Assembly: GCA_016786885.1 (NCBI GenBank)
Contig: JAEUVO010000052.1
Span: forward strand, 12,930 to 76,929
DNA length: 64,000 bases
Direction: 5' to 3'
From: Chitinophagaceae bacterium
GTDB taxonomy: Bacteria; Bacteroidota; Bacteroidia; Chitinophagales; Chitinophagaceae
The notes beneath the pieces are model-generated. The model saw only the letters and a list, made by a program, of their open reading frames with translations. It was not told where the DNA came from and did no database searches. Both the position numbers and the translations under genes were made by a program. The first letter of the stretch is position 1. Every line of letters starts with the position of its first letter. Shown in pieces: positions 9,584-41,262 of this stretch.

Positions 9584-10123
9584 TTACTGAATCATTGTTC
9601 TTAGCTGTATCAAAGCACTTCGAATCCTGGTTTTTACTGTTCCCAGTGGAATATCCAGTGCTTTGGAAATTTCTTCATGGGTAAATCCCTGGAAATACGA
9701 CATATCTACCAATATCCTTAATTCGCCTTTTAGTTTTCCTAATACTTTTCTCAGGCCAACATCATCCATCGCAGGCCCGGTTACAGCACCTGCAATTTCA
9801 TTATTTTCAGGCAGCGCCACATTCTTCAGGGAATTGTTATGCCCCTTTGATCTCACCTCGTCAATGGCCGCATTACGGGCAATATTCAGCATCCAGGTAA
9901 AGAGCCTTCCTTTTGATGGATCATATGACTCTATTTTGCGCCAGATATTCACAAAAACATTTTGCAATACATCATTAGCTGTCTCTCTATCTGTCACAAC
10001 TGCATTCACAATGCCATAAAGAGCACCGGAATAGTTATCGTACAAATAGCTGAAAGCTTTTTCATTGCGTTGTTGCAACAAAAACACCAGCTCCTGTTCG
10101 CTGTATGTAGTGTTTAGGTTCAA
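9584..10123 (-). CDS. ECF sigma-70 factor (SigK-like, RskA-linked)
   Basis: AFSYLYDNYSGALYG, DVLQNVFVNIW, FTWMLNIARNAAID, LDIPLGTVKTRIR. Confidence 0.93.
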   Translation of the reverse strand: MNLNTTYSEQELVFLLQQRNEKAFSYLYDNYSGALYGIVNAVVTDRETANDVLQNVFVNIWRKIESYDPSKGRLFTWMLNIARNAAIDEVRSKGHNNSLKNVALPENNEIAGAVTGPAMDDVGLRKVLGKLKGELRILVDMSYFQGFTHEEISKALDIPLGTVKTRIRSALIQLRTMIQ

Positions 10124-16876: not shown

Positions 16877-16903
16877 AAACTTTTATTGCAACATAGTGTC
16901 TGA
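16877..16903 (+). promoter_or_regulatory. sigmaE-type ECF promoter AAACTT-N16-TCTGA
   Basis: Boxes and spacer identical to those at 18402-18428 and 39617-39591. Confidence 0.7.
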
Positions 16904-16953
16904 TTTAGCCGAACCGGTAAAACTACGATGTGTTTATTCTTTACTTTATAATC

Positions 16954-17274
16954 ATGATGTATAAAATTGCTCTTATATTTTTTTTATCCGCATTATTTGC
17001 TTGTCAACGAAAGACTATACCTGTTATCACAGAAAGGAAGGATGCGCCATCCCAAAAACCTGTGCTTGTTATGGAGACAATTGTTGCAGATACAGCCGCA
17101 GGCAGGCAGATATTCATGGCCCGCTGCGGACGATGCCATGGGGTGCCGGATCCATTACAATACACCACTAAGCGATGGGAAACTATCCTGGCATCCATGA
17201 TACCCCGTAGCAGAATTAATACAGAACAGGCTGTACATCTTACCGCATTCATAAATGCTAATGCAGACAGATAG
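16954..17274 (+). CDS. Small monoheme cytochrome c lipoprotein
   Basis: Lipobox LFAC, CGRCH heme-binding motif, W...L..M axial-ligand candidate; start at 16954 or 16957. Confidence 0.8.
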   Translation: MMYKIALIFFLSALFACQRKTIPVITERKDAPSQKPVLVMETIVADTAAGRQIFMARCGRCHGVPDPLQYTTKRWETILASMIPRSRINTEQAVHLTAFINANADR

Positions 17275-17276
17275 AT

Positions 17277-18320
17277 CTAATGTGCAAGGGTCTTAATTTT
17301 CTTATTCATAATATAAAACCAAAGCGGGGGAAGCAATGATAACAGCATCATTCCCGGGTAACCGGTTGGCATTTGCGGAGAGTTATCATGATGTCTAAGT
17401 ACCTGGTATTTCCTGCTGGCCATATAGTGATGATCAGAATGGCGACTCAGTTCGAACAGCATTAATCTTCCAATAATATGATCGCTGTTCCAGCTATGTA
17501 CCGGCATTGCTCTTTCATACTTGCCATCTCCAATACTTTTGCGTTGCAAGCCATAATGTTCTATATAGTTTACTGTTTCTAATAATAAGATGCCGATTAA
17601 GGCAGCTGATAAAAAATATAAAGTAACCAGCCATCCGAAAATAAAAAAGATAATGGCAAGGAATCCTGCCTGGATAATATGAAACATTATCATTTCATTT
17701 TCTAAGGAAAAAACCGGTTTCCCAATTTTCCTCCTTTCATGATTGGCAATATGCCAGGCACTTAGATAACTGAAAATGATAGAGCGGAAATAAAAAGTAT
17801 AAACCATTTCACCATACCGGGCACTGCTGGGATCTTCCGGGGTAGCCACTCTTTTGTGATGCCCTTTATTATGTTCAGTAAAAAAATGCATGTAAAGCGA
17901 TGTAAGTAATAATGCCTTTGCCAATGTCTGTTCAAACTTATTGACCCGGTGTCCTAATTCGTGGCCAACATTAATCCCAAAAGTGCCACATAGTAAACCC
18001 ATTACCCAAATGCGACCCAGGATATCGAATGCGGTGAGATCATTTGATGACATTACTACCAGGAATTTTACCAGCAGACTGTATTGCAGAATGACAATAA
18101 GGTAAAGTAAGAGGTCATATGTTTTGTCCTTTTTGGCAAGTTCTTCTTCGGCAGTACTCATGTTTACCGGGCTTGGTTTTATAAACAATTCAGTAACCGG
18201 TATAATAATCCATGCCCAAACCAACGGCATCCATATCTGCCATCCTGTAACACTGAAAGAATGCCAGGCCCCTATATATATAACCAAGGGAGACAAGTAT
18301 TTAAAGGCCCTGATTTGCAT
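17277..18320 (-). CDS. alkB: Alkane 1-monooxygenase (AlkB family membrane di-iron hydroxylase); start probably MQIRAF at 18320
   Basis: All AlkB His boxes present: HELGH, EHNKGHH, NYIEHYGL, LSRHSDHH; PQMPTGYP. TACTTTTG -7 element at 18347-18340 argues against the 18338 start. Confidence 0.92.
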   Translation of the reverse strand: MQIRAFKYLSPLVIYIGAWHSFSVTGWQIWMPLVWAWIIIPVTELFIKPSPVNMSTAEEELAKKDKTYDLLLYLIVILQYSLLVKFLVVMSSNDLTAFDILGRIWVMGLLCGTFGINVGHELGHRVNKFEQTLAKALLLTSLYMHFFTEHNKGHHKRVATPEDPSSARYGEMVYTFYFRSIIFSYLSAWHIANHERRKIGKPVFSLENEMIMFHIIQAGFLAIIFFIFGWLVTLYFLSAALIGILLLETVNYIEHYGLQRKSIGDGKYERAMPVHSWNSDHIIGRLMLFELSRHSDHHYMASRKYQVLRHHDNSPQMPTGYPGMMLLSLLPPLWFYIMNKKIKTLAH

Positions 18321-18401
18321 ATATTTTTTGATGTTCATTCAAAAGTAAAAAATAAGCTCTCCTTTTTAGCGTTTCTTGTAAGATAAACTTGCATCCTTTT
18401 T

Positions 18402-18428
18402 AAACTTGCTACCTTCATAATAGTCTGA
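18402..18428 (+). promoter_or_regulatory. sigmaE-type ECF promoter AAACTT-N16-TCTGA for DUF1800-DUF1501
   Basis: Exact match, ending 18 nt before the ATG; a second TAAACTTGC copy lies 17 nt upstream. Confidence 0.7.
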
Positions 18429-18446: not shown

Positions 18447-19940
18447 ATGTCGTTGACTAACCAGTTGAAGAACCAGCACCTGATGTGGAGGGCCGGGTTC
18501 GGCCCCGCCGTTGAGCAATTAGACGACCTCTCAAAATATACTCCCAAACAATTCTTTAAAGCCCTTGTAAAAGCTTCTGAAAAAAAACCGGATTATATCG
18601 ATGTGGCAGATGATTACCTGAAAGGGTTGATGATGGGTATTGAAGAAGTGGGTCGTCAGCAAAAAAAGGAACTGGATGCGGATGAAAGAAAAAAAGTACA
18701 GCAAAAGAACCGGGAAGGTGTACGTAACCTTAATATGTACTGGATGCATGAGATGGTGGGTACCGCATCTCAACTGAGGGAAAAAATGGCTTTTTTCTGG
18801 CATGGACATTTTGCCTGCCGCAACCTGAATGTGTTTTATCAGCAGGGATTATTGGATGTTATACGAAGAAATGCACTGGGAAATTTTGGAACGATGTTAA
18901 GAGAGGTTTCAAAATCTGCAGCCATGCTGAATTTCTTAAATAACCAGCAAAACCGGAAAGACCATCCCAATGAAAATTTTGCACGGGAAGTGATGGAGTT
19001 GTTTACACTGGGAAGAGGAAACTATACTGAAAATGATGTGAAGGAAGCGGCGAGGGCATTTACCGGCTGGGGAGCCAATCTAAAAGGCGAGTATCAGTTC
19101 CGCCGGTTTCAACATGATTTTGGCAGTAAAACAGTATTAGGAAGAACGGGAAATTTTGACGGAGGTGAAGTGCTTGATATTTTATTGGAAGAAAAGCAAA
19201 CTGCAAAATATATTACACAGAAGATATACAAGTTCTTTGTAAATGAAAAAGCGGATACTGATAAAATAAACTGGCTGGCAGACAGGTTCTACAAAAATGA
19301 GTATGATATCAGCAAACTGATGGAGGATATTTTTACCAGTGATTGGTTTTACGATGAAAAAAATATCGGGGCACAAATAAAATCACCGGTGGAGCTTTTA
19401 GTAGGAATTCAGCGCATGCTGCCTATGAAACTGGAAAATGAAGAAGCATTAATGCTCCTGCAAAGAGTACTCGGTCAATTATTATTTTACCCGCCAAATG
19501 TTGCCGGATGGCCCGGTGGAAAGAACTGGATAGACAGCTCTTCTTTAATGATGCGGATGCGGATACCTAAACTGATCAATGATGTGGATGAAATGAATGT
19601 GAAAGCCAAAGATGATGATGATACCATGATGGGTATGAAGGATGGCAATATGCAGGCCAAAGGAAATAAAAAGCCCGGTGGCCAGCAGTCAGGAGCAGCT
19701 TATGCCGGAATGCGCCGTCAGCAGATCAATGCCAATGTGGACTGGCAACATTATGTAAAACATTATGAAAGTGTGCCAAGAGAAAACCTGGCAGAAACGA
19801 TTTCAAAAATTCTACTGCAAACAAAAAGCCGGGTAAGCATGGATATCATCAAGCAATACGCTGACCAAACAGGAAGGGAGAACTTCGTTAAAACAGCTAC
19901 CCTGCAGATAATGAGTACGCCGGAATACCAGTTATGTTAA
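18447..19940 (+). CDS. DUF1800 family protein
   Basis: HLMWRAGFG, FFWHGHFA, PNENFAREVMELFTLG, EAARAFTGW, PPNVAGWP, STPEYQL. Confidence 0.93.
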   Translation: MSLTNQLKNQHLMWRAGFGPAVEQLDDLSKYTPKQFFKALVKASEKKPDYIDVADDYLKGLMMGIEEVGRQQKKELDADERKKVQQKNREGVRNLNMYWMHEMVGTASQLREKMAFFWHGHFACRNLNVFYQQGLLDVIRRNALGNFGTMLREVSKSAAMLNFLNNQQNRKDHPNENFAREVMELFTLGRGNYTENDVKEAARAFTGWGANLKGEYQFRRFQHDFGSKTVLGRTGNFDGGEVLDILLEEKQTAKYITQKIYKFFVNEKADTDKINWLADRFYKNEYDISKLMEDIFTSDWFYDEKNIGAQIKSPVELLVGIQRMLPMKLENEEALMLLQRVLGQLLFYPPNVAGWPGGKNWIDSSSLMMRMRIPKLINDVDEMNVKAKDDDDTMMGMKDGNMQAKGNKKPGGQQSGAAYAGMRRQQINANVDWQHYVKHYESVPRENLAETISKILLQTKSRVSMDIIKQYADQTGRENFVKTATLQIMSTPEYQLC

Positions 19941-20009: not shown

Positions 20010-21209
20010 ATGCATATCAAACGTAAAGAATTCATTCAGATCGGTTCATTGGCCACAGCGTCGCTGATGGTGCCAAAATTCCTGAAGGCATTTGAAGGGA
20101 AAAGTATGGTGTTGCCGGGAAATAAAGTGATAGTGATCCTTCAATTGAGTGGAGGAAATGATGGACTGAACACTGTAATTCCTTTCAGGAACGATCTTTA
20201 TTACAAAGCAAGACCAAAACTGGGCATTGCAAAAGATAAAGCATTGTCAGTGACAGATGAAGCAGGGCTTCATCCGGCTTTGACAGGGTTTAAAGAATTA
20301 TATGATGATGGCAGCCTCGCTATTTTAAATAATGTAGGCTATCCTAACCCGGACAGATCACACTTCCGCAGTATGGATATTTGGCATACCGCCAGCCAGA
20401 GTCATGAGTACTGGACAAATGGATGGGTGGGCCGTTATCTGGATGCACAATGTAATGGTTGTGATAAACCAACACAAGCGATAGAACTGGATGATGTACT
20501 CAGTTTAGCATTAAAAGGAGAAGATATTAAGGGAATCGCAGTAAAGGATCCCCGGAGATTGTACGGAACCGCCAATGAAAAATTCTTCCGGGATGTGATG
20601 AAAAATCATAAGGATGAAGCAGGAGAGCAGCCGGTGGATTATTTATATAAAACAATGGCGGAAACATTGTCGAGTGCTGATTATATTTTTCAGCAAAGCC
20701 GGATGCACCCGACCAATGCGGAATATCCTAAGACAGAACTGGGAAACAGCCTGAAGACAATTGCTTCATTAATCTACTCAGAGATCAATACGAAAGTATA
20801 TTATGTATCATTGGGAAGCTTTGATACACATATCAACCAGGATGCACAGCAGCAACGCTTGTTTACTGAAATGAATGATGCGGTGAAAGCTTTTGTAAAA
20901 GACCTGAAACAGCAGCACCGCTTTGAAGATGTCATGTTGTTCACTTTCTCTGAGTTTGGCAGAAGGGTGAACCAGAATGCCAGCAATGGTACAGATCATG
21001 GTACAGCTAACAATATGTTCCTTGTCAGTGGCGGACTAAAGCAAAAAGGTGTGCTGAATCCATTACCTGACCTCAGTGACCTGAATGAAGGTGATCTGAA
21101 ATACAACGTCGATTTTAAGAATGTGTATGCCACGATGTTGAAAAAATGGCTGAATGCTGATGACAAAGCGATTTTGTTAAAGCAGTATGAGTACATGAGT
21201 TTTATTTGA
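20010..21209 (+). CDS. DUF1501 family protein (Tat-like leader)
   Basis: KRKEFIQ leader, LQLSGGNDGLN, RSHFRSMDIW, GSFDTH, SEFGRR, GTDHG. Confidence 0.93.
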   Translation: MHIKRKEFIQIGSLATASLMVPKFLKAFEGKSMVLPGNKVIVILQLSGGNDGLNTVIPFRNDLYYKARPKLGIAKDKALSVTDEAGLHPALTGFKELYDDGSLAILNNVGYPNPDRSHFRSMDIWHTASQSHEYWTNGWVGRYLDAQCNGCDKPTQAIELDDVLSLALKGEDIKGIAVKDPRRLYGTANEKFFRDVMKNHKDEAGEQPVDYLYKTMAETLSSADYIFQQSRMHPTNAEYPKTELGNSLKTIASLIYSEINTKVYYVSLGSFDTHINQDAQQQRLFTEMNDAVKAFVKDLKQQHRFEDVMLFTFSEFGRRVNQNASNGTDHGTANNMFLVSGGLKQKGVLNPLPDLSDLNEGDLKYNVDFKNVYATMLKKWLNADDKAILLKQYEYMSFI

Positions 21210-38324: not shown

Positions 38325-38349
38325 AAAAGCCGGTTCTTAAGACCGGCTT
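38323..38349. terminator. Terminator between convergent genes
   Basis: AAGCCGGT-tcttaag-ACCGGCTT with a flanking A run. Confidence 0.75.
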
Positions 38350-38377
38350 CGTATACAGATAACAACCCATTTTAAAA

Positions 38378-38791
38378 TTATAATGGCAACGACCTTATTC
38401 TGCCACGGATACCCTGACGTTTTTGCATCCTTTCTCTTTGAACATCCTGCAGTATTCTGATGAATTTTTCCTGGTGCTCATAAACCTCATTACTCCTCCT
38501 TTCACCAACTATCTCTTTAAATTCAATTCGGTACCGAAGGCGAAGATCAATGATCTTTTGCTGTAAGTCAAGTTTGGGAAGGGTTCTGTTTTCTCTTAGG
38601 GTAGTCCTCCATTCTTTAAAATACCGGAGGAAAACAGGAGTAAACCGCTCAGCTTCGTCTTTGTTAAGGTGCATTCTTTGCTGGATATACTCTCTCATTT
38701 TATCCCGAATCTTTTCGTCACCCTCGTCCTGAGCCAGAATGGAGGTAGTGGCAAATACACACAAACTCAGTATAAATAATATCTTTTTCAT
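38378..38791 (-). CDS. Periplasmic helical protein (Spy/CpxP-like accessory of the ECF module)
   Basis: Signal peptide ending ILAQ; charged helical body (LNKDEAERFTPVF); third gene of the ECF/anti-sigma unit. Family assignment is inference. Confidence 0.7.
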   Translation of the reverse strand: MKKILFILSLCVFATTSILAQDEGDEKIRDKMREYIQQRMHLNKDEAERFTPVFLRYFKEWRTTLRENRTLPKLDLQQKIIDLRLRYRIEFKEIVGERRSNEVYEHQEKFIRILQDVQRERMQKRQGIRGRIRSLPL

Positions 38792-38801
38792 TTTTTTCTG
38801 A

Positions 38802-39578
38802 TTAATTCATCAAGGTTTCATCAGAAGCAATATTGGTATCAGTATCATCTAATAATTCTGTATCATTTAGCAGGCTCTGTATTTCATTTTCCGGAATATC
38901 TTTTACCAGCTCTTTAATATCCTGGTTTTTTTCTACAGAAGCTATAGTGCCTTGTCCGGATTTCTCTTCCTGTGTTAATTGAATAAACTCATCAATTTTT
39001 TCAGTACTTACTTTTTTGGTATTAACCTTTACCCATTTGTATGAATCCGAATCTACAGATACCTTATCTCCGTACAAGAAAAAATATCCGGTAGTAACAA
39101 TTATACCAGTCACTATGGCTGCAGCTGCAAAACGAATCCATTTACGACTGCCGAGTGATACAACTTTTGTTTTATTGGAAGCTCTTTTTTCACCCAGGTT
39201 TTCAAAATACCCGGCGGGTACTGAATAAGGCATTTCCTTTTTCAGGCCACTGAGTAAAGGTGAAAGAGTTTCTAACTCTTCTTTTGCTGACTGGCTACCG
39301 GTTGAAACAGAAGAGATCAATGATGTTTCTATTTCTTCAAAATACCCGGCAGGTACAGTATAAGGCATGTCTTTAGACAACTTGCTGAGCAAAGGAGATA
39401 AATAGGCTAATTCATCCACTGCATTTTCTGCCTCTAAAGCTCTGATTCTGCGAAGCACCTCCTCAACCAGTCCGTCAAAATATCCTGTCGGAGCAGAATA
39501 AATATTCCCCGGGGTATGTTCAGCCAGTTTGCTTTGCAATTCCCTTAGCTCTTGTAATATGTTGTCTCTCTGTGTCAT
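38802..39578 (-). CDS. Putative membrane-anchored anti-sigma factor
   Basis: Three repeats of (Y)xVPxGYFE/D-LSPLLS-type motif, single TM WIRFAAAAIVTGIIV; follows the ECF gene. Confidence 0.8.
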   Translation of the reverse strand: MTQRDNILQELRELQSKLAEHTPGNIYSAPTGYFDGLVEEVLRRIRALEAENAVDELAYLSPLLSKLSKDMPYTVPAGYFEEIETSLISSVSTGSQSAKEELETLSPLLSGLKKEMPYSVPAGYFENLGEKRASNKTKVVSLGSRKWIRFAAAAIVTGIIVTTGYFFLYGDKVSVDSDSYKWVKVNTKKVSTEKIDEFIQLTQEEKSGQGTIASVEKNQDIKELVKDIPENEIQSLLNDTELLDDTDTNIASDETLMN

Positions 39579-39590
39579 TTTTACGTTAAT

Positions 39591-39617
39591 TCAGACGTTT
39601 TCCGGTCCTCAAAGTTT
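39591..39617 (-). promoter_or_regulatory. sigmaE-type promoter AAACTT-N16-TCTGA for the anti-sigma gene
   Basis: -35 overlaps the ECF stop codon; -10 ends 13 nt before the ATG. Confidence 0.7.
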
Positions 39618-40170
39618 AATGATTCAGCATGTAATCCTCAATTTTTTTAACCGCATGATGATAGCTGGCTTTAAGAGCTCCTTCGCTGGTTTCCAGTACC
39701 CGGCTCATTTCTTCGTAGGGCATTTCCTCATAATACCGTAAGGCGAACACAACTCTTTGTTTTTCAGGAAGTTGTTGAATGGCTAATTGTAATTTCCATT
39801 CTAATTTATTAGCATCGAAATGCTTGTCAGCTTTTATCCGGTTGCTCAGCCCGGTTTCTACGTCACTAAGGCTAACGGAAGCCTTTTTCTTCTGTTGCTC
39901 CAGGTAGGTCAGGCATTCATTAGTGGCTATCCGGTACAGCCAGGTGTACAACTGGCTGTCTTCCCTGAAATTTTCCAACCCATTCCAGACCCGGATCAGA
40001 ACGTTCTGCAGCACATCATTCGCATCTTCATGCTCAACCACCATCCGTCGGATATGCCAGTAAAGTTTTTCCTGGTATTTTTTAATAAGGCTTGTATAGG
40101 CTTTTTCTTTCGTAACAGGGTTGCGAAACTGGACCAGTAATTCGCTATCAGAAGCAGTGGTTAATGACAT
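39616..40170 (-). CDS. ECF sigma-70 factor (RpoE-like)
   Basis: YQEKLYWHIRRMV, DVLQN, LYTWLYRIATNE, LPEKQRVVF, GALKASYHHA. Confidence 0.94.
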   Translation of the reverse strand: MSLTTASDSELLVQFRNPVTKEKAYTSLIKKYQEKLYWHIRRMVVEHEDANDVLQNVLIRVWNGLENFREDSQLYTWLYRIATNECLTYLEQQKKKASVSLSDVETGLSNRIKADKHFDANKLEWKLQLAIQQLPEKQRVVFALRYYEEMPYEEMSRVLETSEGALKASYHHAVKKIEDYMLNH

Positions 40171-40192: not shown

Positions 40193-40219
40193 TTAGAATA
40201 TTGGAGAAGCGGTTTGTTT
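40193..40219 (-). promoter_or_regulatory. Putative autoregulatory ECF promoter AAACAA-N16-TCTAA
   Basis: Same spacer and near-identical boxes to the internal promoter; 23 nt before the ECF ATG. Confidence 0.55.
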
Positions 40220-40242
40220 AAACCACTTCAGTTATTAAAAAT

Positions 40243-40274
40243 AAAAAAGCAGGTTCAATTTTAAAAGAACCTGC
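40243..40274 (-). terminator. Terminator after the transketolase subunit
   Basis: GCAGGTTC...GAACCTGC stem with T run on the minus strand. Confidence 0.7.
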
Positions 40275-40296: not shown

Positions 40297-41262
40297 TTAA
40301 CCATTATTTTTCCTGCTCATCACTTTCACGGCAGCAGCCACTATATCCGGAACATCCAGACCGTATTTTTTCAACAATTGAACCGGGGTACCACTTTCTC
40401 CAAATGTATCTTTTGTACCAATATATTCAATTGGAACCGGGAAGTTTTTTGCTGCTACTTGTGCTATAGCATCACCAAGACCGCCGATGATATTATGTTC
40501 TTCCGCGGTTACTACACATTTTGTTTTACGAATGGATTTTATCACGGCTTCTTCATCCAGAGGTTTAATCGTATGAATATTGATAACCTCTACACTTACC
40601 CCCTTCTCTTCTAACAATGCGCCGGCCTGGATAGCATTCCATACCAGGTGGCCACAGGCAAAAATGGTAACATCTGTTCCTTCGGAGAAATATTGAGCTT
40701 TGCCAATTTCAAAAGGCCTTTCTGAAGTAAAAATTGGCCATGCAGGCCGGCCAAAACGGAGGTAAACCGGACCTTCATATTCTGCAATAGCTTCGGTCGC
40801 AGCCTTTGTTTGTGCATAATCGCAAGGAACAATTACTGTCATGCCGGGCAGCATTTTCATCAACCCTATATCTTCGAGTATCTGGTGAGTGGCACCGTCT
40901 TCGCCCAATGTAAGACCAGCATGCGAAGCACATATTTTTACATTTTTATCACTGTATGCCACAGACTGGCGAATCTGGTCGTATACACGGCCGGTAGAAA
41001 AATTAGCAAAAGTGGTAGTATAGGGGATCTTGCCACCAATCGTCAAACCCGCAGCGATACCTATCATATTTGCTTCAGCAATGCCGCATTGGATAAAACG
41101 TTCCGGGAATTCTTTCATAAACTGGTTCAGCTTAAGGGATCCTGCCAGGTCTGCTGTTAATGCAACAATATTTGAATTTTTTCTTGCTGCTGCTACAATT
41201 CCGTCGCCAAAACCACTACGGGTATCCTTAGTTCCTGTTGATTGAATATCCTTTAATGACAT
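40297..41262 (-). CDS. Transketolase C-terminal (pyrimidine-binding) subunit
   Basis: GIAEANMIG, GEDGATHQ, YLRFGR, TIKPLD, EEHNIIGGLG. Confidence 0.93.
   Translation of the reverse strand: MSLKDIQSTGTKDTRSGFGDGIVAAARKNSNIVALTADLAGSLKLNQFMKEFPERFIQCGIAEANMIGIAAGLTIGGKIPYTTTFANFSTGRVYDQIRQSVAYSDKNVKICASHAGLTLGEDGATHQILEDIGLMKMLPGMTVIVPCDYAQTKAATEAIAEYEGPVYLRFGRPAWPIFTSERPFEIGKAQYFSEGTDVTIFACGHLVWNAIQAGALLEEKGVSVEVINIHTIKPLDEEAVIKSIRKTKCVVTAEEHNIIGGLGDAIAQVAAKNFPVPIEYIGTKDTFGESGTPVQLLKKYGLDVPDIVAAAVKVMSRKNNG

Follow-up and report, generated by a model that had tools for sequence, protein, structure and literature searches.

In a 64-kb stretch of the genome of a Chitinophagaceae bacterium (positions 12930-76929 of contig C51 of the assembly, here called the window; the genome is 3.98 Mb long with 40% G+C), we find that a small cytochrome c lipoprotein gene, a DUF1800-DUF1501 gene pair and the operon of an extracytoplasmic function (ECF) sigma factor share the bipartite, promoter-like motif TTAAAC-N17-GTC(T)nA. 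This motif is very probably the promoter recognised by RNA polymerase carrying that same ECF sigma factor, encoded at 39616-40170. That it is a real promoter-like signal is indicated by its enrichment at one specific spacing, by the orientation of its intergenic copies and by the retention of both boxes across variable spacers, and the predicted link between the ECF gene and the motif before DUF1800 holds across several Bacteroidota orders. The sites and genes at the centre of the argument, with lengths in amino acids (aa), are as follows.

16877..16903, forward strand: predicted ECF-type promoter of the cytochrome c gene, with -35 box (G)TAAACTT and -10 box GTCTGA; weight-matrix score 16.1
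16954..17274, forward strand: small mono-haem cytochrome c lipoprotein, 106 aa, with a lipobox ending in LFAC, the haem site CGRCH and a downstream Met
18400..18428, forward strand: predicted ECF-type promoter of DUF1800-DUF1501, TTAAACTT-N15-GTCTGA, an exact copy of the motif
18447..19940, forward strand: DUF1800 protein, 497 aa, PF08811 at E 1.5e-111, without signal peptide
20010..21209, forward strand: DUF1501 protein, 399 aa, PF07394 at E 9e-26, with a weak Sulfatase match
39591..39619, reverse strand: predicted internal promoter at the junction of the sigma and candidate anti-sigma genes, TTAAACTT-N15-GTCTGA, an exact copy of the motif; weight-matrix score 20.6
39616..40170, reverse strand: ECF sigma factor, 184 aa, whose only domains are sigma-2 and sigma-4
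40193..40222, reverse strand: predicted autoregulatory ECF promoter, TTTAAACAA-N14-ATTCTAA; weight-matrix score 16.9

The initial annotation of this DNA had reported three exact copies of AAACTT-N16-TCTGA, all intergenic, correctly oriented and close to gene starts, and had judged such an arrangement unlikely by chance. A pattern search recovers the three copies at 16877-16903 (+), 18402-18428 (+) and 39591-39617 (-), and the gene identities given with them are also correct. Only 0.05 copies are expected in the window and none of 100 dinucleotide shuffles reaches three. The strand is right in all three cases, and the motif ends 50 nucleotides (nt) before the cytochrome c ATG at 16954, 18 nt before the DUF1800 ATG at 18447 and 12 nt before the ATG of the candidate anti-sigma gene at 39578. 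The description of the sites as intergenic stands for the cytochrome c and DUF1800 copies, but not strictly for the junction copy, which shares 2 nt with the TAA stop of the ECF gene. The near copy AAACAA-N16-TCTAA that had been described before the ECF gene is present at 40193-40219 (-), 22 nt 5' of the ECF ATG (40170). An additional G is common to the three exact copies, making their downstream box GTCTGA, and T(T) precedes the DUF1800 and junction copies as well as the ECF near copy; the cytochrome c site has a G there (GTAAAC). The underlying signal is TTAAAC-N17-GTC(T)nA, for which AAACTT-N16-TCTGA was an earlier notation; the consensus is more degenerate than the three identical 11-mers, which are good representatives of it.

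Could three identical 11-mers nevertheless be a coincidence in AT-rich intergenic DNA? The 40% G+C of the genome speaks for this, as does the fact that, of the 11 exact matches found genome-wide, seven are not promoter-positioned, six of these lying within coding DNA. The same count of 11 is reached only at N16, however, with 1-6 matches at neighbouring spacings, and four of the N16 matches are promoter-positioned as against 0-1 at other spacings. The exact matches beyond the window suggested the broader consensus TTAAAC-N17-GTC, which has 28 matches in the genome, 12 of them intergenic and 10 promoter-positioned; ten other spacings of the same two boxes give 0-4 promoter-positioned matches, with a mean of about 1.5. 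A weight matrix built on 68 aligned orthologous sites returns 14 genomic matches at a score of at least 16. Twelve lie in intergenic DNA, which makes up only about 9% of the genome, and 11 are promoter-positioned; the highest score anywhere in the genome (22.3) belongs to the DUF1800 promoter. By this matrix the genome contains about 11-15 candidate promoters. In the genome as a whole the motif is enriched at this single spacing, in intergenic DNA and in the correct orientation.

Conservation carries the same signal across species. DUF1800 orthologues were collected by profile search with one genome per species, the best 80 of 595 relatives being retained and 78 upstream regions aligned with MAFFT; the survey covers Chitinophagaceae, Saprospiraceae, Lewinellaceae and cultured Chitinophaga, Chryseobacterium, Spirosoma, Larkinella, Hymenobacter and Sphingobacterium. 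The motif precedes the DUF1800 orthologue in 57 of the 78 species under a strict pattern and in 75 under a relaxed one, with 0-1 in reverse-complement and shuffled controls, so that the conservation to be expected from the initial annotation is indeed found. The TTAAAC and TC columns are at least 90% conserved in the alignment, and at a weight-matrix score of at least 14 there are 49 forward matches as against none in the reverse complements and none in the shuffled sequences. At closer range, a footprint of 16 congeners (71-97% protein identity) and one genome from another family of the order shows TTTAAAC and AGTCTGAAAC kept without insertions or deletions while the 15 bases between them vary freely. 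The junction between the sigma and candidate anti-sigma genes has TTAAAC and (G/A)TC in 26 of 28 genomes, five other families included. Upstream of the ECF gene itself, directly behind a terminator hairpin that is likewise conserved, 19 of 21 congeners have TTAAAC and TCTAA at fixed spacing; the -10 box is TTCTAA, or GGTCTAA in small or reduced genomes. Further members of the predicted regulon behave alike, with the motif upstream of a cytochrome c peroxidase gene in eight of eight relatives and, by the strict pattern, upstream of an LTXXQ gene in 12 of 12. The relatives' loci, each of about 4.4 kb, usually contain exactly one strict match, in the expected place and on the expected strand, where a base-composition estimate gives about 0.05 chance matches per locus. 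Between them the shuffles, the spacing enrichment and the conservation controls refute coincidence, and we regard it as excluded.

For the cytochrome c gene the evidence is of narrower range. Its translation has both the CxxCH site (CGRCH) and a lipoprotein signal, and its scores of 18.4 and 18.1 bits against Pfam Cytochrome_CBB3 and Cytochrom_C do not reach the cut-offs, which are 27 and 21.3 respectively. About 10 congeners have a syntenic orthologue, and in at least eight of them the motif lies upstream of it. The gene lies next to DUF1800 within the genus only, and its link to the motif is likewise restricted to the genus. As a separate observation on gene order, many congeners have the ECF and DUF1800 operons on one contig at a distance of about 17-23 kb, a loose synteny without adjacency that apparently also holds in three Chitinophaga species (loci L152/L189, L155/L190 and L157/L188).

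Conservation alone is silent on which protein binds, and a conserved bipartite element might also be the operator of a DNA-binding regulator, or some other non-coding signal. We consider this very unlikely. The element consists of two short boxes at a rigid spacing of 17 nt with a free spacer, its cores, AAC and GTC, are those usual in ECF promoters, every site is in the one orientation and 12-140 nt 5' of a start codon, and the element precedes a sigma factor gene and the gene of its partner; no dyad symmetry or direct repeat was apparent on reading the sequences, with no repeat search run. We infer that transcription proceeds from these sites.

The question of which sigma factor reads the promoter turns on the ECF operon, whose remaining features are listed here.

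38326..38350, reverse strand: intrinsic terminator ending the ECF operon, from a terminator scan
38378..38791, reverse strand: product of the operon's third gene, a secreted helical protein of 137 aa with a signal peptide, Spy/CpxP-like in composition only
38802..39578, reverse strand: candidate anti-sigma factor, 258 aa, from position and topology
40237..40274, reverse strand: terminator hairpin GCAGGTTC...GAACCTGC with a T-run, read from the sequence and kept in most congeners

The identity of the sigma factor is secure, as Pfam finds both region 2 (Sigma70_r2, E 6.5e-16) and region 4 (Sigma70_r4_2, E 2.4e-15), and with two domains in 184 aa it belongs to the ECF group (group 4) of the sigma-70 family. 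In NCBIfam it matches at the level of the superfamily only (TIGR02937, 103 bits against a cut-off of 42.9), and its 92.4 bits against the RpoE_Sigma70 equivalog TIGR02939 fall far under the cut-off of 236. In a sequence search of the PDB its closest solved relatives are AlgU (8z6g, 6in7) and E. coli sigmaE (1or7), aligned over the full length at E 4e-20 to 5e-17, a genuine but remote similarity. The gene directly 5' of the operon encodes a split transketolase C-terminal subunit (40297-41262); the predicted hairpin at 40237..40274 ends this transketolase gene and isolates the ECF promoter. A scan for sigma-70-type promoters and terminators is uninformative for Bacteroidota promoters and confirmed only the terminator of the ECF operon.

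We assign the motif to this ECF because the factor is single-copy, because the motif lies in its own operon and because the promoters co-vary in Chryseobacterium. Of 41 relatives, 36 have the ECF orthologue as a single copy, and the same is true of 15 among 16 distant Bacteroidota with a DUF1800 orthologue. In the distant genomes the motif precedes the ECF gene in Puia, two Chitinophaga species, both Saprospiraceae and Hymenobacter; Puia, three Chitinophaga species, Spirosoma, Larkinella and Sphingobacterium have it where the sigma and anti-sigma genes meet. With its own motif both 5' of the ECF gene and at the junction, the module is, on sequence evidence, an autoregulated one. In Chryseobacterium the ECF promoter has the form TTTAAC-N17-ATCC (five genomes) and the DUF1800 promoters the form TTTAAC-N17-ATCAAAA, whereas every other lineage examined has TTAAAC-N17-GTC at both the ECF and the DUF1800 promoters. 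This parallel change provides the strongest argument for the assignment that the sequences offer. The order of the three genes is itself the same in Chryseobacterium, where an ECF gene is followed by those of a single-pass protein with the motif NIYxVPxxF and of a secreted helical protein.

The initial annotation had attributed the regulon to this ECF and had foreseen that a different factor might be the cognate one, which would leave the regulon intact but not its assignment. The genome does contain 19 matches to sigma-70 region 2 and roughly 15 ECF sigma factors, ECF specificities can overlap, and a second ECF gene (9584-10123, -) lies in the window itself, only 7 kb from the cytochrome c gene. 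This neighbour was tried as the cognate factor and rejected, its upstream region being without TTAAAC-N17-GTC. The other sigma genes with readable upstream regions have a few isolated TTAAAC boxes but no full motif at this spacing, and a search of the genome for paralogues of the 39616-40170 factor finds none at E 1e-30 or better. Since, moreover, the motif lies within the operon of this ECF in almost every lineage examined and changes there together with the DUF1800 promoter in Chryseobacterium, recognition by another of the ECF factors is in our view improbable, and the attribution to the 39616-40170 factor is upheld.

Comparison with the sigmaE system of E. coli, whose consensus the motif had been said to match, bears this likeness out in part. 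E. coli sigmaE promoters are described by GGAACTTTT and (T/C)GGTCAAAA; GGAACTT and TCAAA stand 16 nt apart, and the discriminator is 5-6 nt long (Rhodius et al. 2006, PMC1312014). The motif described here has the same 16-nt spacing, a -35 box with AAC(TT), a GTC core in the -10 box and an A-rich tail; the match to the consensus holds for the spacing and the -10 box and fails for the -35 box, which is TTAAAC(TT) and not GGAAC(TT). A literature text search for the older consensus GAACTT-N16-TCTGA returned primer sequences only. Because sigmaE discriminators measure 5-6 nt, transcription starts are predicted near 16909, 18434, 39585 and 40187. The region 4.2 helix reads GTVRSRIFRAR in this ECF as against GALKASYHHAVKK in sigmaE, and the differing residues would fit a different -35 box.

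At the level of the operon, the pairing of a two-domain ECF with an adjoining gene for a single-pass membrane protein recalls sigmaE-RseA and the AlgU-MucA pair of P. aeruginosa, but the partner here lacks the RseA/MucA domain and has PYxVPxGYF repeats instead. Unlike the sigmaE and AlgU operons, this one has no rseB/rseC (RseB/MucB) gene next in line, its place being taken by the Spy-like 137-aa gene, and it has a conserved internal promoter between the sigma and partner genes. Both regulons comprise exported and envelope proteins, the present one also a possible small-RNA target; its members are cytochromes, a peroxidase and DUF1800-DUF1501, not the Bam/Lpt assembly factors. Judged from sequence, the system works like the sigmaE system, but its ECF is not an RpoE orthologue.

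The 258-aa product of the second gene is a candidate anti-sigma factor by virtue of its position, its topology and its co-conservation with the ECF from Chitinophagaceae to Chryseobacterium. A single transmembrane helix is predicted to separate its cytoplasmic part (residues 1-145), in which the PYxVPxGYF repeat occurs three times, from an acidic C-terminal tail in the periplasm. In alignment the repeat takes the form ELxxLSPLLxxLxKxMPYxVPxGYF, in three copies. The family comprises at least 1257 homologues, none with a functional name and almost none with a Pfam domain, and its members have one to four repeats ahead of a single transmembrane helix. The 137-aa product of the third gene has no Pfam or NCBIfam match above threshold, LTXXQ (PF07813) being among the families not matched.

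The DUF1800-DUF1501 pair is a conserved predicted target. The initial identification of both proteins is borne out by Pfam at the E-values listed above: the DUF1800 protein scores 374 bits against PF08811 (cut-off 26.1), covering profile positions 1-419, and the DUF1501 protein 91.3 bits against PF07394 (cut-off 27). FWHGHF, PNENFxRE and PPNVxGWP are invariant in the DUF1800 alignment and may mark an active or metal-binding site. An AlphaFold2 model of DUF1800 is mostly helical and has a predicted local distance difference test score (pLDDT) of 84.7 and a predicted template-modelling score (pTM) of 0.86; a Foldseek search of the PDB with this model gave no structural neighbour (best E 2, TM-score at most 0.15). 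The DUF1501 sequence contains GGNDG, DTH and DHG, which read as alkaline-phosphatase superfamily motifs; together with the weak Sulfatase match, their only other support, they suggest an alkaline-phosphatase/sulfatase superfamily fold. Its leader, MHIKRKEFIQIGSLATASLMVP, resembles that of the twin-arginine translocation (Tat) pathway, with KRKEF where RRxF is usual. Because DUF1800 is without a signal peptide, the arrangement suggests that it is exported together with DUF1501 via Tat. Neither the motif nor, on the + strand, a terminator-like site occurs in the 69-nt gap between the two genes, and DUF1501 is probably co-transcribed with DUF1800. A search of 8.4 million papers gave no function, activity or regulator for DUF1800 or DUF1501; DUF1800 is named in just six of them.

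Within the window the candidate regulon consists of the ECF operon, the cytochrome c lipoprotein and DUF1800-DUF1501. Elsewhere in the genome the motif lies upstream of genes for the following proteins.

Elsewhere in the genome: di-haem cytochrome c peroxidase lipoprotein (CCP_MauG)
C55:47090-47821: LTXXQ (Spy/CpxP-type) secreted protein, PF07813 at 33.6 bits against a cut-off of 24.3
Elsewhere in the genome: lipoprotein of 119 aa with a C-x5-CH motif (CASNIGCH)
Elsewhere in the genome: beta-lactamase-fold lipoprotein (hydrolase)
Elsewhere in the genome: membrane protein of an ATP-binding cassette (ABC) transporter
Elsewhere in the genome: repeat-rich protein of 1452 aa
Elsewhere in the genome: outer-membrane-like protein
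Elsewhere in the genome: CarboxypepD_reg lipoprotein
Elsewhere in the genome: two paralogous lipoproteins
C61:58782: second DUF1800-DUF1501 pair, with a strict match to the motif

Three predicted members are haem-type or haem-like lipoproteins (C57:105212-105571, C15:122779-123951 and 16954-17274 of the window). The mono-haem cytochrome c, the di-haem peroxidase and the C-x5-CH protein hint at a periplasmic redox or peroxide theme and not at classical stress in the folding of outer membrane proteins. The label of envelope stress, used from the outset for these genes, is suggested by regulon content, namely by the exported proteins, the Spy-like protein and the peroxidase. One further exact match, inside a DUF1800 paralogue on contig C11, falls within coding sequence, is not followed by a gene start and was treated as chance.

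A number of points weigh against the reading developed so far. On the side of the motif scan, intergenic calls depend on our own crude set of longest open reading frames (3500 genes, 91% of the genome), and the training set of the weight matrix includes four sites of this genome, which makes those four matches circular, though not the others. The second DUF1800-DUF1501 pair was rejected as a conserved target, the motif being present in only one of seven relatives' loci (L024-L030, the best DUF1800 matches in genomes without the main orthologue). As to the assignment, the upstream readings exclude three small sigma-like matches, on contigs C29, C54 and C78, that were not resolved to genes, and this favours another ECF as the cognate factor. 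The 258-aa partner has no match in Pfam, NCBIfam or a PDB sequence search and no anti-sigma domain, and its alignment-based AlphaFold2 monomer is of low confidence (pLDDT 58.8, pTM 0.21), which might be expected if the protein folds only on its partner. The predicted regulon, finally, mixes redox and chaperone-like proteins, leaving the stimulus ambiguous.

By analogy with other ECF systems, the ECF would be held at rest by the single-pass membrane protein encoded just downstream, and a signal from the envelope would release it to transcribe its targets. The first target would be the ECF gene itself, from a weaker TTCTAA variant of the promoter; at rpoE P2, too, a weaker TCTAA variant stands at the sigma gene's own promoter. 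A second would be the candidate anti-sigma and Spy-like genes, read from the internal promoter at the ECF stop codon, the stronger of the two, an arrangement that would act as negative feedback. The third would be a dispersed regulon of exported proteins, comprising the cytochrome c lipoprotein and the DUF1800-DUF1501 operon in the window and, elsewhere, the di-haem cytochrome c peroxidase, the LTXXQ protein, the beta-lactamase-fold hydrolase and several lipoproteins. We advance only tentatively, and as rather less probable than not, the further idea that DUF1800-DUF1501 is a dedicated effector arm of an ECF-controlled envelope stress response, in which a Tat-exported metallo-hydrolase, DUF1501, would carry DUF1800 into the periplasm and the pair would repair or remodel an envelope component under redox or folding stress, the link being an ancient one in Bacteroidota.

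ECF regulons with autoregulated promoters are of a well-known kind. The present analysis adds the extension over several orders, the co-variation in Chryseobacterium, the genome-wide list of regulon members and the structural results on DUF1800. Casas-Pastor et al. (2021, PMC7826278) describe ECF03 as RpoE-like, mainly from Bacteroidetes and without a characterised member; the taxonomy and similarity profile of the present ECF are compatible with that group, which is a lead only. A text search for ECF03 turned up few papers, and no promoter motif for the group among them. Todor et al. (2020, PMC7776599) combined autoregulatory motifs with phylogenetic footprinting to predict regulons for most ECFs over about 10,500 genomes. 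The same logic is applied here, and cultured Chitinophaga and Chryseobacterium are probably among their genomes; the main text of that study makes no mention of this ECF, DUF1800 or DUF1501, and its data sets may already contain the ECF-DUF1800 link. In Flavobacterium psychrophilum a class of ECF-type promoters, SM6, has been mapped by experiment together with an autoregulated sigma/anti-sigma pair (PMC9723704). SM6 was considered as the same motif and rejected, as its CGT -10 box and its type IX secretion genes point to a different regulon.

With these results the widespread, unstudied DUF1800-DUF1501 pair gains a testable candidate regulator, a conserved single-copy ECF present in several Bacteroidota orders. 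As the pair is a predicted conserved target of a single-copy factor, the pair and its partners can therefore be followed through that ECF, and the co-regulated partners, namely the cytochrome c proteins, the peroxidase and the Spy-like protein, could reveal the stress that the pair answers. For a conserved core ECF, in a phylum whose ECF regulons are mostly unknown, the analysis also supplies a predicted promoter code together with a probable regulon, and it points to a candidate anti-sigma family without a recognisable anti-sigma domain.

Two minor observations concern sites outside the window. At C76:24411-24550 (+) there is an orphan motif with a score of 17.8; no open reading frame comes after it, and a strong terminator hairpin stands about 100 nt further on. 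Motif and hairpin are kept in the nearest relative, the one other genome with them, where the sole ATG is CTG. The locus is a candidate small-RNA gene under ECF control, and recalls the small RNAs that depend on sigmaE in E. coli. At C55:47036-47090, 5' of the LTXXQ gene, two ECF-type promoter motifs stand in tandem. The distal one, TTAAACC-N16-GGTCT, is that of the present regulon and the proximal one a different motif, CGAA(A/G)GTTT-N14-CGTC(N)AAA, kept in about 11 of 12 congeners; the arrangement suggests that two different ECF sigma factors control the LTXXQ gene.

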